Shown: one piece after another, positions 1,073-12,220 of the stretch | Position numbering within the stretch: the stretch's first letter is position 1 | Layout of the letters: the number at the start of each line of letters is the position of its first letter | NCBI GenBank assembly: GCA_049509455.1 | Contig: JBEKZX010000044.1 | Location: 1-12,708 of the forward strand | Source of the DNA: Conexivisphaerales archaeon | Lineage (GTDB): Archaea > Thermoproteota > Nitrososphaeria > Conexivisphaerales > DTJL01 | Length of the DNA: 12,708 nt | Direction: 5' to 3' | Program-made: the position numbers and the translations under genes | Notes under the pieces: generated by a model | Databases searched by the model: none | What the model saw: the letters and a program-made list of their open reading frames with translations, nothing else | What the model was told of the DNA's origin: nothing

Positions 1073-1198
1073 TGGCGCCGGGAGAGGGATTCGAACCCTC
1101 GCGGCCCATGAAGGGCCACGGGCTCTCATTCCGACCGGCGGAAGGAGCTCCGCCTTCGGCCTCAAGGCCCGCGCGTTAATCCACTTCGCTACCCCGGC
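1073..1198 (-). tRNA. tRNA-Ser(UGA) with a 36-nt intron at canonical 37/38 (exon 1 1198-1161, intron 1160-1125, exon 2 1124-1073); CCA encoded
   Basis: Acceptor GCCGGGG/TCCCGGC with discriminator G73 then CCA. Anticodon stem CGGGC/GCCCG with spliced loop CT-TGA-GA. Long variable arm GGCCC-TTCAT-GGGCC. T arm GAGGG-TTCGAAT-CCCTC. The intron inner helix CCGA/TCGG starts exactly where 37/38 BHB geometry predicts. Confidence 0.93.
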
Positions 1199-1287: not shown

Positions 1288-1758
1288 ATGTGTAAGGGTA
1301 AGCTGAGGCTCTTGCGGACCGGGAAGTCTTTCAGGAAATTCCGTCTTCTGGACTACATGTCCGACGCCCTCGTCCAGAGCTACGGCCGGACCCTGGAGGA
1401 CGCCTTCTCCAACGCCGCATCGGCGATGACCGCTGTGATGGTCGACCTGCGCAGGGTCTCCCCCGCTCCACTGACGAGGGAGGTCGTCGCAGAGGGTTTC
1501 GACGAAGAAAGCCTTCTCTACAACTGGCTGGAGGCGGTCCTCGTTAAGAAGGACATAGACCAGGAGATCTTCAGGTCGTCACATGTAAGGATCAAGACAA
1601 CACCCAAGGGCCTCTCCCTTCGAGGCACCCTCCACGGTGAAGCCGTGGACGCGAAACGCCACGTGTTCAAGCGCGACGTCAAGGCCATCACCTACCACGA
1701 AATGTCAATCACGAGGAAGGACGGGAGATACACCCTCAGGTTCCTCCTGGACCTCTGA
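1288..1758 (+). CDS. Archease (RtcB tRNA ligase cofactor); start may be TTG at 1312
   Basis: F.LLDYMSDALVQSYG.TLEDAF.NAA, LLYNWLE, DVKAITYHEM and the C-terminal ...LLDL match the archease family pattern. Confidence 0.92.
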   Translation: MCKGKLRLLRTGKSFRKFRLLDYMSDALVQSYGRTLEDAFSNAASAMTAVMVDLRRVSPAPLTREVVAEGFDEESLLYNWLEAVLVKKDIDQEIFRSSHVRIKTTPKGLSLRGTLHGEAVDAKRHVFKRDVKAITYHEMSITRKDGRYTLRFLLDL

Positions 1759-6179: not shown

Positions 6180-6249
6180 AAATACTTTAACCATCGACAG
6201 GCGTCTACCCTCTCTGCCCGAGAGTCTCTCTCTGTGCGATGAAATGATA

Positions 6250-6390
6250 TGGGGCCGGCCGGATTTGAACCGGCGATCTCTAGCGCCCTTGGCCTCGCAC
6301 GGCGGCAGCCGCGCGATCAGGCTAGTATCCTAGTCCAAGCTATCCACCGAACAATTCGAAAGCACTGGTTCGGCTCTGGACGACGGCCCC
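6250..6390 (-). tRNA. tRNA-Pro(GGG) with two non-canonical introns: 36 nt at 15/16 (6375-6340) and 29 nt at 34/35 (6317-6289); CCA not encoded
   Basis: Joining exons 6390-6376, 6339-6318 and 6288-6250 gives a 76-nt cloverleaf: GGGGCCG TC GTCC AGCTTGGACTA GGAT A CTAGC CT-GGG-GC GCTAG AGATC GCCGG TTCAAAT CCGGC CGGCCCC A. Both junctions form BHB-like motifs. Confidence 0.88.
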
Positions 6391-6421
6391 ACACTCACTC
6401 GAAAGGCTCGAAGCTCTGTTC

Positions 6422-6428
6422 TATATAT
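6422..6428 (-). promoter_or_regulatory. TATA box of tRNA-Pro
   Basis: ATATATA on the minus strand, 32-38 nt upstream of the mature 5' end. Confidence 0.6.
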
Positions 6429-6526
6429 GTATTGGAAGGAGGCGCCCTCATCGCCGCCTTCCTGACTCAGGGTCAAGTAGATACTCACCCCTTCATGCGC
6501 GATGACCTCGTCATAGAGCGCCTAGC

Positions 6527-7306
6527 TCACGGACGCTCTGCCAGCTTCATCGACCGCAGAATCGTCCGATATGAATCATCATCAGGAGATCTCCTGTAAG
6601 CCCTCAACGCGGCCAGCACTTCCTCTCGTTCCGCTCCCAACCTGGACAAGACGATGGGGCCATATGGCCTTGATAACGTCAGGTACTGAAGGAGGTCGTT
6701 GACGTTCCTCCTCCTCCCGCCTGTTGCCGCGGTCTCGAAATCCAGCACACGCGCTCGGCCGTCCAGCTGAATTATGACGTGGCGGCGTGGGTCCGAGAGC
6801 TCCTTGTGGTCGACACCGGCGACGTCCAGGAGGCGGGCCAGCCCGCAGATGTCGGTCAGGATGCTCCTGAAAGCGCCGTCGGCAAGGTCCTTCGACCCTT
6901 TCAACCAGTCGACTAGATTGTTGCCCACCAGTTCCTCCATCACGATGAAATCTCGTGACGCGGCGAACAGGACAGGTCCTATCTTCGACCTGTTCGATTC
7001 CTTGAGGATCTCCCCCTCTCTTTCTAGGCTTTCTCTGTCCGCGTCCGTCCGCCTGATTTTCAAAGCAGCCCTCTTCCCCTTCCAGAGGCATTCGACCACC
7101 ACTCCCACATGTCCCTTGCCGAGCACCTTGAGGCCACCGACCTCGATACTTCCGACGAAGACCAGAGCCTCCACTCCCATTTCCTTAAGAGAGATAATGC
7201 GCCGCTGAGCTTCAGACTGCGAGCCCGAAGGGTAGCAGAGCACACTCACGAAGGGAGGAACGCAGAGCCCGTCGACGTCCACCTTCCTAGAAACGGAAGC
7301 CGGCAA
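6527..7306 (-). CDS. Atypical RIO-like / predicted Ser/Thr protein kinase (COG2112-type)
   Basis: Gly loop LGKGHVGVV, ALKIRR lysine, catalytic-loop-like HKELS, and DFE. Start is TTG 7306 or GTG 7282. Confidence 0.85.
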   Translation of the reverse strand: MPASVSRKVDVDGLCVPPFVSVLCYPSGSQSEAQRRIISLKEMGVEALVFVGSIEVGGLKVLGKGHVGVVVECLWKGKRAALKIRRTDADRESLEREGEILKESNRSKIGPVLFAASRDFIVMEELVGNNLVDWLKGSKDLADGAFRSILTDICGLARLLDVAGVDHKELSDPRRHVIIQLDGRARVLDFETAATGGRRRNVNDLLQYLTLSRPYGPIVLSRLGAEREEVLAALRAYRRSPDDDSYRTILRSMKLAERP

Positions 7307-8648
7307 GCTCCGACAACGCCATCCTGTCGACGACCCGCCTGCTGGAGTATGCTTCTCGGCCGACTAGCACCTCATGCGTCTCCTTGGCCTCGGCCGCCAG
7401 GCCCTTCGCGAATCCGACCCTCGTCACGGGATCCTCCATATACTTCAGCAGGAGGTCGGCAGGCCTGGACATGTCGTTCTTTGAGAGGGCGTGGCTCCTC
7501 ATATCGTCGCCTAGCCACCATGAGTCAGACCGACCATTCGACTTGGCCAGGAACCTTTCATTCGCATCCTTCATGAAGATCTCAGGCCCAATCCTTTCGA
7601 GCGTTCTCGGCAGCACCTCGACCGAAACGAGGAAGGCCATCGAGACGCGCCCTCTTTCTGCGGCCACCCTGTGCCTCAAGACTCGAACCCCGTCCTTGGC
7701 CAGGTGCTCGGCGACGCCGTTGGCGCTCTTCCATAGCTCGCCCCACAGGATGTCCTCGCTTCGATCCTTGAAGGCGAACCTCAGCATGAGCGTGTGACTC
7801 TTGATGTGGCCCGGTGGGGCGCTCACGGGCTGCAACTGCCTGGCGCCAAAGAACTCTAAGCTGGGCTTCTTCAGGAAGAGCCTTGACAAGTGAACGAACT
7901 CCGCCAGCTTGGCCGGAGAGACGGCTAGCCCGAGGTTTCTGGTCGTGTCGACGGGGTCCAAGAGTATGAACGCTTCCCCTTCGAAGAGGGACCTGGCATT
8001 TTCTTCGCCTCCCTCCAGGCTGATGACTACGCCTTTCTTCCAGGAAGATGCTGAGCGAAGGAGCTCGACAAACGATCTGTACTTCAGGACGAGCACCTCG
8101 CAGGCGTAACCGCTAAAGCCTCGCACGCGGATTTCGGCGCCGTAGAGCGCTTGTGCCTTGAGGAATCTCTTCAGCATCCTGACTTCGGATCTCAGACCTT
8201 CGTTCAAATGGGCCTCCAGGTACTTCGTGTGAAAGGGCGAACGGTCAGCGGCGCTCTTCCACTCTCCCTTCGTTACCCCATAGCACGGGACTACGTTGAC
8301 GGTCACAGAGTCCACGTCGGCTTCGACGTAGGGGTGCTCGGCGTACCTCCTCCTGGGCGAGCGCCCTTCCAGGGCGGCCTCGGCCAGGGAGAGCCCCAGC
8401 CCCTCGAACTGCGTCCGATTCACCTCCTTCGGGTAGACAAGGAAGAAGTCCACGTCCGTCTCAGTTTCCAGCCAGGTGTCGTGCGCGTAGGAGCCTCCTA
8501 TCTCGATTCGCGGCGAGATCTTGGCCCCCTTTGAGGCTTCTTCGAGGAGCTGGATGACGTTCTCCACAGCTAGTGCGACGGCCCTCCGTCGTTTCAGGCT
8601 CGGCATCGATTCCTTCTTCGCCTCGGCCAAGACTTGATCTAGATTCAA
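7287..8648 (-). CDS. cca: Archaeal class I CCA-adding enzyme
   Basis: GSYAHDTWL..ETDVDFF nucleotidyltransferase motif, YAEHPYV, SAADRSPFH and GAEIRVRGFSGY. SD GGGGTGA (8659-8653) overlaps the thpR stop. Confidence 0.96.
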   Translation of the reverse strand: MNLDQVLAEAKKESMPSLKRRRAVALAVENVIQLLEEASKGAKISPRIEIGGSYAHDTWLETETDVDFFLVYPKEVNRTQFEGLGLSLAEAALEGRSPRRRYAEHPYVEADVDSVTVNVVPCYGVTKGEWKSAADRSPFHTKYLEAHLNEGLRSEVRMLKRFLKAQALYGAEIRVRGFSGYACEVLVLKYRSFVELLRSASSWKKGVVISLEGGEENARSLFEGEAFILLDPVDTTRNLGLAVSPAKLAEFVHLSRLFLKKPSLEFFGARQLQPVSAPPGHIKSHTLMLRFAFKDRSEDILWGELWKSANGVAEHLAKDGVRVLRHRVAAERGRVSMAFLVSVEVLPRTLERIGPEIFMKDANERFLAKSNGRSDSWWLGDDMRSHALSKNDMSRPADLLLKYMEDPVTRVGFAKGLAAEAKETHEVLVGREAYSSRRVVDRMALSELAGFRF

Positions 8649-9889: not shown

Positions 9890-10326
9890 AGAGCCGTTTC
9901 GGCTTCGGGTGCCAAGTCACGGTCAGGGCACCGGTCAACCCGTCCGAAGACCCGGTGAAGGTCCTGAGTGCTGTGGACCAGCTCTTCGGGTCCTCCTCCA
10001 GAACGGGCCTCTCGTCCTCGGCTGAGTTCGTCGTTGCGGAGTACGCGGGGGATCAGGCGCTCACCAAGGTCTACGAACAGGCGAGGTCCAGGATGACGAT
10101 CAGCGTCCTGAGGCGGCTCCTGAGGCAGCGCCAAGAGGAAGGTTCCACGAGCTTCATGCTTAACAAGCAGGTGGCCGCAGGAGGGATCGTCGTCTTCTGT
10201 GAAAGCGAAGCGGAGTCCCCTCTAGGTCCGATTACCGTCTACATCGAGACGCCGGAACTGGAGCACTTCATCGACTGGATAGCGCCCGACCTGCGGGGCC
10301 CCAGACGTTCATTCAGGAAGCGCTAA
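9871..10326 (+). CDS. DUF54 / UPF0201 putative RNA-binding protein
   Basis: V..PVNPSED..KV..A, LNKQVA..G.V and ESPLGPI patterns; usual partner of the preceding kinase. Confidence 0.85.
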   Translation: MAGERLKSRFGFGCQVTVRAPVNPSEDPVKVLSAVDQLFGSSSRTGLSSSAEFVVAEYAGDQALTKVYEQARSRMTISVLRRLLRQRQEEGSTSFMLNKQVAAGGIVVFCESEAESPLGPITVYIETPELEHFIDWIAPDLRGPRRSFRKR

Positions 10327-11220
10327 CTCGTAGCTGCTGAAGTCTTCGCCTATCGTGACGTTCTGGAAATGTTTCGAAGCTTGTTTCAATAACAGCGCAG
10401 AATCGTTAATGCGAGCGCTGACGTGAGTTATGACCAGGCGTCCCACCTCCGCTTCTGAGGCGAGTTGCGCGGCCTCCCCTACCGTCGAATGGAGGTATTC
10501 CTTTGCCTTATCCACGAACTCTTCGCTGTAGGTCCCGTCGAAGACCAGGAGGTCGACCTTTCGGAAGAACCTCACCAGGTCCTTCGTGGGCCTGGTGTCC
10601 CCCGAATAGCCGAAGCTCCTCCCTTTCCTCCTGGGGCCTGACACCTCGTCAGGCCGGATGGCTCGCCCATCCAGCTTTACGGTACAGCCGTCCTGGAGCC
10701 TCTTCCAGAGAGGGCCCTGCGGAACCCCTAAGGCCCGTGCCTTTTCAGGGAAGAACCTGCCGGGCCTGGTCGATTCGTCGACGCGGTACGCGTAGCTGTC
10801 GCCTATGTGAAGGGTTCTTTCCGCTCTCAACTTGAACTCCCTCTCCTTCAGCACGATACCGGGGGAGACTCGGTGAAAGGAGATTTTGTAGGGAACGTAA
10901 ACGTGAAGGGCGGAGATGTTGAATTTGATGATCTTATCTAGATCTCGGGGGCCGTATACGTTGAGAGGCTCCTTTCTGTTCTGGAGTGCGAGGCTTTGGA
11001 TGAGGCCGAGGAGCCCGAGGAGATGGTCGCCGTGGAGGTGCGTTACGAAAATATGCTGGGGGTTGGAGATCGGAGGCTTGGCCAGCATCATCTGCCGCTG
11101 GGTCCCTTCGCCGCAATCGAACAGCAGCAGCTTGCCCTCTCTCTGCAGCGCCACGGCTGGGAGCCCCCTCTCCCTAGTAGGGGCCGCGGCCGCGGTTCCC
11201 AGCAAAGTCACCTTGAACAC
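10309..11220 (-). CDS. rnz: Ribonuclease Z (tRNA 3' endonuclease)
   Basis: LLGT...PT..R, FDCGEGTQRQ, THLHGDH metallo-beta-lactamase motif, GP-type exosite GVPQGPLWKRLQ, SGDTRP, HST and THVSAR. Confidence 0.96.
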   Translation of the reverse strand: MFKVTLLGTAAAAPTRERGLPAVALQREGKLLLFDCGEGTQRQMMLAKPPISNPQHIFVTHLHGDHLLGLLGLIQSLALQNRKEPLNVYGPRDLDKIIKFNISALHVYVPYKISFHRVSPGIVLKEREFKLRAERTLHIGDSYAYRVDESTRPGRFFPEKARALGVPQGPLWKRLQDGCTVKLDGRAIRPDEVSGPRRKGRSFGYSGDTRPTKDLVRFFRKVDLLVFDGTYSEEFVDKAKEYLHSTVGEAAQLASEAEVGRLVITHVSARINDSALLLKQASKHFQNVTIGEDFSSYELALPE

Positions 11221-11224
11221 GATC

Positions 11225-12220
11225 TTATGACCTCCTCAGCACCGATATCACCCTGGTCAGGCTTCGGTGCGCGTAGAAGTCATATTCACCTAGTACCTCA
11301 AATCCTTTTGGCCCCTCCAGCGGCACGCTCTTCTGGTGCATCGCCACCAGCCTTCCCCCGCGACGCAGGCACTCTCTGCTTTGTGCCAGAAGCGCTTCGA
11401 GGAGGTCCTCCGTCCGGGCGCCCTTCGTCGAGCTGGCCCTGCCGTAAGGGAGGTCTCCTGCGATGGCGTCGACCTCCCGGAAGGGCAAGAACCTTGCGTC
11501 GCCCCGCAGCACCTGGCTCGCGGAATCTAGGCTGAAGCCACGCAGGTTCCTCCGTCCGCCGAAGACCATTCTCTTGTCCAGGTCTAACCCGAGGCCGTAG
11601 GAGCCCACCAGGCACGCCTCGATGACGGTGCTGCACGTCCCCGAGAACGGGTCTAGGAAGGTGCCTTCCTCCGCGACCGCCGTGAGGTTGACCATCAGCC
11701 TCGCCAGCTTGGGGAATAGGGCCGAAGGGTGAAAGAAGGCGCGTGCCCTCGGCCTTCGGGCCACCCACTTCCCCGCGCCCTTGGAGGTCGTCAGCCCGAT
11801 GAAAGCTCTCCTCCCCCTCTTTACGACCCTGATGACGGCGTCGGGGTCCTTCATCTTGACCGACGAGCCGTCGGCCTCCCTGAGGACACGGTCACCGACG
11901 GCTTCGTCGACGGCCCTCTTTACCGAGTCGTCGAAACCTTCGGCGTCGACCTTAAACGTCCTCCCCGTCAGCCTAGAGAAGTCTACAGATCTGGCTTCTC
12001 TCAATATATCCTCAGCGTCGGCAAAGAGGAGAAGCTCCCCTACGTCCTGCAGGAAAGCCGCCCGCGTAGCCACTTCACGGTGGAGCTCGCCTACGTTGCA
12101 AGTCACGAGCCACTCTTTCACGCTCACCTTGGCCCGCTGGCCCGAGGCCTCTAGGAGCGCCTCAAGCTCACCCTCAGCAACATCGAGCCTCCCGCCGCTG
12201 GGGTCGCCATAGACTATCAA
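11225..12220 (-). CDS. trmG10: THUMP plus Rossmann methyltransferase, tRNA m2G10/m2,2G10 methyltransferase (Trm11 family)
   Basis: RPRARAFFHPSAL.PKLARLMVNL, FLDPFSGT, GLDLD, GDA..LP and DLPYGR. Confidence 0.88.
   Translation of the reverse strand: MIVYGDPSGGRLDVAEGELEALLEASGQRAKVSVKEWLVTCNVGELHREVATRAAFLQDVGELLLFADAEDILREARSVDFSRLTGRTFKVDAEGFDDSVKRAVDEAVGDRVLREADGSSVKMKDPDAVIRVVKRGRRAFIGLTTSKGAGKWVARRPRARAFFHPSALFPKLARLMVNLTAVAEEGTFLDPFSGTCSTVIEACLVGSYGLGLDLDKRMVFGGRRNLRGFSLDSASQVLRGDARFLPFREVDAIAGDLPYGRASSTKGARTEDLLEALLAQSRECLRRGGRLVAMHQKSVPLEGPKGFEVLGEYDFYAHRSLTRVISVLRRS

Follow-up and report, generated by a model that had tools for sequence, protein, structure and literature searches.

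Structure of the locus

The window analysed here, a 12,708-nt stretch of DNA from an uncultured soil or peat archaeon, carries on its minus strand a 141-nt tRNA gene whose parts are listed in Table 1. The gene matches Rfam family RF00005 over the full length of the model (42.8 bits; E 1.9e-6; model positions 1-71), with two large insertions placed in the D loop and the anticodon loop. Excision of both yields a 76-nt product that ARAGORN recognizes as tRNA-Pro(ggg), a perfect cloverleaf with all four arms intact, and excision of intron 1 alone suffices for the program to call the same 29-nt intron 2 unaided. The fold of the precursor has a z-score of -3.2 relative to shuffled sequences.

Table 1. 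Features of the interrupted tRNA gene and its upstream region, in window coordinates.
Feature	Position	Strand	Description
tRNA-Pro(GGG) gene, complete	6250..6390	-	141 nt, CCA not encoded; Rfam match and call on the spliced product
Exon 1, tRNA nt 1-15	6376..6390	-	Acceptor 5' strand, U8 C9, D-stem 5' strand GUCC, A14 G15
Intron 1	6340..6375	-	36 nt, interrupts the D loop; 6381-6378 pair with 6345-6342 as central helix, followed by an inner helix of 7 bp
Exon 2, tRNA nt 16-34	6318..6339	-	Remaining D loop, D-stem 3' strand GGAU, A26, anticodon-stem 5' strand CUAGC, C32 U33 G34
Intron 2	6289..6317	-	29 nt, splits the anticodon between G34 and G35
Exon 3, tRNA nt 35-73	6250..6288	-	G35 G36 G37 C38, anticodon-stem 3' strand, variable loop AGAUC, T arm, acceptor 3' strand, A73
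TATA-like box	6421..6428	-	ATATATAG (gene strand); 31-38 nt upstream of the mature 5' end; invariant in 7/7 homologues

The anticodon loop of the spliced product reads CUGGGGC, comprising the anticodon G34 G35 G36 followed by G37, and its frame (CUNGGGC) is common to the Pro(UGG) and Pro(CGG) tRNAs of the same genome. Both of these tRNAs are intronless, and they share with the spliced product an identical acceptor stem (GGGGCCG/CGGCCCC) and A73. The anticodon bases, G37, A73 and the G1-C72, G2-C71 and G3-C70 pairs of the acceptor stem are taken here to be the synthetase identity elements of proline tRNA. Because G34 and G35 are separated by intron 2, the anticodon exists only after splicing, as the first-pass annotation of the sequence had recognized. 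Its caution that standard scans often miss or mislabel genes of this kind was equally apt: ARAGORN makes no call at the locus by default and, with introns allowed, reports a tRNA-Arg(tcg) whose intron spans 68 nt and whose D stem has 2 bp, and a whole-genome tRNA search passed over the locus.

Regular-expression and BLAST scans of the assembly, which is 95.5% complete, yielded three proline tRNA genes, only one of them with a GGG anticodon. A second gene of this type, for which a check had been advised, was not found by regular expression, BLAST or ARAGORN over the same 95.5%-complete assembly, an absence that is not absolute because the assembly is a metagenome-assembled genome (MAG) of 140 contigs. 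The codons CCC and CCU (CCY) account for 60% of the proline codons in 428 long ORFs. The main value of the locus lies in annotation: without intron-aware tools, the genome seems to lack the tRNA for its commonest proline codons, or else gains a false tRNA-Arg. Two kinds of candidate were discarded during the scans, namely an ARAGORN 'Pro(ggg)' call on another contig (C72), which is spurious and has no tRNA features, and four look-alikes of the anticodon arm elsewhere in the assembly that are not tRNAs.

Splice junctions

Intronless Pro(GGG) genes of the sister genera were located with a pattern for the 5' end. The spliced 76-mer forms a gap-free alignment of equal length with the Pro(GGG) tRNAs of the family's other three genera (genomes G005-G008) and of G009, a genome from a second family. 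It also agrees with 22 genomes belonging to two further families of the order across the segment that the search pattern spans. Identity amounts to 65 of 76 bases with G007 and 66 of 76 with G009, exon 1 matches the opening 15 nt of the intronless G007 and G008 orthologues without a difference, and the isoacceptor signature U8 C9 G10 U11 C12 is common to all Pro(GGG) orthologues seen. The junctions are fixed by this colinearity with intronless orthologues. For intron 2, which has no repeat at its borders, the loop CUGGGGC results solely from the 34/35 junction. An AG repeat flanks intron 1, with the consequence that a cut at 13/14, 14/15 or 15/16 would yield the same mature RNA, and the predicted site of 15/16 is chosen by the geometry of the splicing motif alone. 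With that qualification for 15/16, the perfect cloverleaf and the colinear alignment bear out the Pro(GGG) identity and both intron positions as initially proposed.

Splicing motifs and folding of the precursor

In the strict archaeal splicing motif (hBHBh'), a 4-bp central helix is flanked by two 3-nt bulges, one on each strand, and each bulge is cleaved behind its second base. In intron 1, the central helix is formed by tRNA nucleotides 10-13 (GUCC) with GGAU of the intron, giving four pairs of which one is G.U; it is flanked by 3-nt bulges on the 5' side (A14 G15|A) and the 3' side (AG|C16) and by a 7-bp inner helix (GCCGAAC/GUUCGGU), and an outer helix is absent. In intron 2, nucleotides 29-32 (AGCC) pair with GGCC of the intron to give three pairs and an A.C mismatch at the outer end, a mismatch present in 7/7 sequences of the genus (see below). 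Its bulges are U33 G34|A and AA|G35, and it is extended by a 9-bp inner hairpin and a 2-bp outer helix. Every helix and bulge drawn for the two motifs in the first-pass annotation is present, in the right topology. Given the missing outer helix of intron 1 and the mismatched central helix of intron 2, both motifs are relaxed (HBh'-type) rather than strict. No C or D box of a small RNA was seen within either intron on reading by eye, and the introns are too short to hold one.

Each motif had been expected to sequester the 5' strand of a tRNA stem, such that the cloverleaf would be blocked until splicing, and ensemble calculations with ViennaRNA divide this expectation between the two introns. 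It holds for intron 1, where the central helix has a probability of 0.6-0.7 and the D stem of about 0. For intron 2, however, the central helix reaches only 0.01-0.02 versus about 0.3 for the anticodon stem, and the best fold that contains this helix lies 3.2 kcal/mol above the minimum. The anticodon stem is thus favoured over the motif, and it must open for splicing rather than being locked away. A register of intron 2 shifted by one base would provide four Watson-Crick pairs at nearly the same predicted energy (-54.8 vs -55.1 kcal/mol) and would yield a 78-nt RNA with a 9-nt anticodon loop. A mismatched central helix combined with an equally stable shifted register makes intron 2 a natural substrate for learning how a two-subunit endonuclease sets its cutting register.

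Conservation within the genus

The two-intron gene occurs in 4/4 congeneric genomes, one of which has two copies, and on five metagenome contigs, one of these (L108) bearing a gene identical to that of the window; together they provide seven distinct sequences. The homologous genes are 139-142 nt long, with indels of 1-2 nt in the intron loops. Variable alignment columns number 2 of 78 in the exons and 21 of 65 in the introns when the two copies of congener G001 are left out. The central helices and bulges of both introns do not vary among the seven sequences, and four inner-helix pairs, two of them in intron 1, have changed on both sides. Pairing holds in 92.5% of alignment cells and falls to 30-50% once the 3' partners are displaced by 1-3 columns. 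Shuffling provides a modest control, with 23 of 500 shuffles attaining the observed covariation score in a sample of seven closely related sequences from one genus. This pattern indicates that the motif is probably maintained in evolution as the intron sequence drifts.

Indels of 1 nt that disturb the anticodon arm were encountered in exon 2 of both G001 copies and, at one position, of G004, and these may be sequencing errors or signs of decay. The two copies of G001, itself a MAG, lie on separate contigs (L035 and L061/L105; C31 and C29) with identical flanks and different exon 2 indels, and one of them also has a change in the T loop. Co-binning of two strains, errors in sequencing or decay of a duplicate could each account for them.

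Putative promoter, processing enzymes and a proposed pathway

The TATA-like box upstream of the gene (Table 1) would presumably act as its promoter. It is embedded in a conserved block of about 40 nt (6395-6435, minus strand; ...CCAATACATATATAGAACAGAGCTTCGAGCCTTTCGAGTGA...) that is found in 7/7 homologues and is longer than a TATA box alone would need. A helper element in the 5' leader was sought as conserved pairing between the leader and the tRNA precursor, and none was found; the best pairing differs among species.

The genome encodes two EndA paralogues, on contigs C130 and C108. The paralogue of 181 aa matches the catalytic half of the fused enzyme and that of 269 aa its structural half, the layout of a two-subunit (alpha-beta type) splicing endonuclease. 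Endonucleases of two subunits have been linked to non-canonical introns in Thaumarchaeota and Crenarchaeota (PMC4090602). RtcB is likewise encoded in the genome, and archease, CCA-adding enzyme and RNase Z are encoded within the window.

A plausible pathway for the maturation of this tRNA can be outlined from these components, in which transcription, cleavage at the predicted bonds, ligation and the order of the steps are all inferred. Transcription from the TATA-type promoter would produce a precursor of about 150 nt, in which the two-subunit endonuclease would cut after the second base of each 3-nt bulge, that is, at G15|A and G|C16 for intron 1 and at G34|A and A|G35 for intron 2. RtcB, together with archease, would then ligate the three exons, and the resulting 76-nt tRNA would have its GGG anticodon made up of G34 with G35 G36. 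The ends would be trimmed by RNase P and RNase Z, and the non-encoded CCA would be added by the CCA-adding enzyme.

The window as a whole is rich in genes for tRNA maturation. Archease (the RtcB activator), an archaeal CCA-adding enzyme, RNase Z and a THUMP-domain methyltransferase (TIGR01177/Trm14-like) are encoded at 1288-1758(+), 7287-8648(-), 10309-11220(-) and 11225-12220(-), and two intron-containing tRNA genes lie among them. The second of these tRNA genes, at 1076-1198(-), scores 45.3 bits with Rfam and has a long variable arm; ARAGORN reports it as Ser(tga) and places a 36-nt intron within the anticodon loop, and CCA is apparently encoded. Elsewhere in the genome, the match to RtcB (C108:22430-25716; L074-L076) is split into model positions 1-54 and 45-426, separated by about 1.3 kb within a single frame of 995 aa, an arrangement that suggests an intein. 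The gene for the structural-type EndA subunit directly adjoins this RtcB locus.

Interpretation and alternative explanations

The locus is most probably (at about 0.9) a functional archaeal gene for tRNA-Pro(GGG) that contains two protein-spliced introns of the bulge-helix-bulge type, a reading based on sequence comparison and predicted structure. One alternative account of the same features is a decaying pseudogene, a former tRNA-Pro with two insertions that has lost both splicing and use. Such decay would accommodate the thermodynamically disfavoured motif and ambiguous register of intron 2, the irregular anticodon arms of the G001 copies, and the loss of the CCA that intronless orthologues encode. 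It would not be expected to leave exons nearly invariant across species while the introns change with compensation, to conserve the promoter block, or to yield a perfect cloverleaf upon excision, and it would affect the only Pro(GGG) gene found in a genome where CCY makes up 60% of proline codons; the probability of decay is accordingly very low. Just as improbable is a real gene in which intron 2 is cut one base away, following precursor positions A74 and A101, or at mixed positions, such that part or all of the product would carry an abnormal 9-nt anticodon loop. The four Watson-Crick pairs of the shifted central helix and its matching predicted energy speak for such a cut, but only the 34/35 junction gives rise to the loop CUGGGGC possessed by all intronless orthologues and paralogues. 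Moreover, the 34/35 intron of genome G037, from another family, forms its central helix (AGCC/GGCU) without a mismatch in the unshifted register, and in the shifted register of the present intron the expected start of the outer helix is mismatched.

Two further readings are so poorly compatible with the data that they deserve hardly any credence. The call by ARAGORN of a tRNA-Arg(UCG) with a single 68-nt intron, obtained with introns allowed, entails a D stem of 2 bp and a 73-nt body in which the sequence of intron 1 serves as the anticodon arm; this molecule is colinear with no orthologue, and it shares its acceptor stem and 3' half with the proline tRNAs of the genome. The conserved sequence could also be ascribed to a plus-strand protein-coding frame (6249-6599) that starts with ATG, spans 116 aa, overlaps the region and has tblastn matches in congeners. 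Those matches are confined to the tRNA, however, and the frame would be broken by the 1-2-nt intron-loop indels of the homologues (139-142 nt), whose sequence changes track RNA pairing.

Relation to known multi-intron tRNA genes

In the first-pass annotation, multi-intron tRNAs were set against the background of the Thermoproteales, where they were said to be best known. This background needs to be widened, as the relevant one is that of Thaumarchaeota/Nitrososphaeria and not the Thermoproteales only, with two-intron genes tabulated in Table S7 of the report on tRNAscan-SE 2.0 (PMC8450103). That program includes an intron model for Thaumarchaeota (Thaum-BHB-noncan), and of the 498 tRNA genes that the table covers in 11 genomes, 39 have two introns, the non-canonical introns numbering 107 (PMC8450103). 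The present gene resembles this Thaumarchaeota (Nitrososphaeria) set, as tabulated, in its phylum-level lineage, in having two short introns per gene with relaxed motifs at non-canonical positions, and in its two-subunit endonuclease; it differs in stemming from an uncultured genus. The sites 15/16 and 34/35 are absent from the reviews consulted, which list example sites only.

Among the Thermoproteales, Pyrobaculum islandicum is cited for a tRNA-Pro(UGG) with introns at 25/26, 37/38 and 56/57 (Sugahara 2007, cited in PMC4090602). As cited there, this gene is likewise a proline tRNA with several protein-spliced, non-canonical introns and BHB or HBh'-type motifs, whereas the present gene belongs to another phylum-level lineage, serves another isoacceptor, has its introns at other positions, lacks the canonical 37/38 intron and has its anticodon split. 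The tRNA-Thr(GGU) of Caldiarchaeum subterraneum has introns at 24/25 and 45/46 (PMC3293823) and is likewise a two-intron tRNA from a relative of the Thaumarchaeota, with gene variants that show recent change in intron content (PMC3293823). In contrast to that case, which was tied to transposable insertion and recombination of gene fragments (PMC3293823), no paralogues of the present introns were found in the genome, and the flanking genes of the locus are unchanged. The gene type is already known and common in the lineage, and the locus is a further example of it that leaves the current understanding of archaeal tRNA splicing unchanged.

A sample of 200 genomes of the class besides the host, in which intron sites were read from the Pro(GGG) loci fetched, contradicts the initial impression that a D-loop site such as 15/16 is uncommon: within this clade the sites are not rare, given a 34/35 intron in G037 and D-loop introns at 13/14 in two further families. 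Across the class, Pro(GGG) introns occur at 13/14 (G165, G173), at 29/30 and 30/31 (several genomes of one family), at 34/35 (G037), at 37/38 (several genomes) and in the variable region, and Pro(GGG) is an intron hot spot in this class. One member of the sample, G131, is an unpublished genome and underlies none of these statements. The gene of G165 (L118) has three introns, at 13/14, 30/31 and 37/38, and that of G173 (L129) combines its 13/14 intron with one in the variable region. The 34/35 intron of G037 (L121) is 13 nt long and lies in the same isoacceptor as the present intron 2, with which it also agrees in its bulge bases (UG|A, AA|G). The D-loop introns of G165 and G173 also lie in the same isoacceptor and within two bases of intron 1, and they differ in placing their central helix on nucleotides 8-11 rather than 10-13. 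In sequence and length, the introns of all three genomes are unrelated to those of the present gene. Because the families between these lineages and the present genus are intronless, separate intron gains are suggested.

Other interrupted loci were noted in the same searches. The Pro(GGG) gene of G052 has introns at 30/31 and 37/38, and the intron-bearing Pro(GGG) loci noted in the class comprise L112-L117 and L130 besides L118, L121 and L129. As by-catch of the pattern search, another heavily interrupted tRNA gene of about 150-190 nt with several insertions appeared from GGGGGCGTCGTCTAGCAAGG onwards in L081 (G009:C89) and L085 (G006:C1), and is common to two families of the order.

Origin of the two introns

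In genomes G005, G006 and G007, an intronless Pro(GGG) gene lies downstream of genes homologous to the pair, CCA-adding enzyme and kinase-like, that precedes the present locus, and the gene order of CCA-adding enzyme, kinase-like gene and tRNA-Pro(GGG) is conserved in the sister genera. These shared neighbours identify the two-intron gene as the positional orthologue of the intronless ones, from which it follows that both introns were gained on the branch leading to the genus. An intronless and a two-intron gene downstream of the same neighbours form a clean comparative case of two recent intron gains that could help to date the gain of tRNA introns and to clarify its mechanism. When both introns with their borders were compared by BLAST with the whole genome, only chance-level matches of 12-16 nt were returned, and spread by transposition was rejected because no similar intron sequence exists elsewhere in the genome.

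A tentative and rather unlikely scenario is that both introns arrived together, the resident gene having been overwritten through gene conversion or recombination by a diverged, intron-bearing copy devoid of CCA. Several features hint at such a joint arrival: both introns appeared on one branch with no single-intron intermediate seen; the encoded CCA, present in every intronless orthologue, has been lost from the two-intron gene; and the T arm and variable loop are unlike those of the family's Pro(GGG) tRNAs and match those of an extra, intron-bearing Pro(UGG) of G005. Were this scenario true, the locus would provide a datable natural example of the spread of protein-spliced tRNA introns. The extra proline tRNA of the sister genus G005 (L062; G005:C17:52187-52276, minus strand) has the anticodon UGG and a canonical 15-nt intron at 37/38, and its body is of the GGG type (U8 C9).
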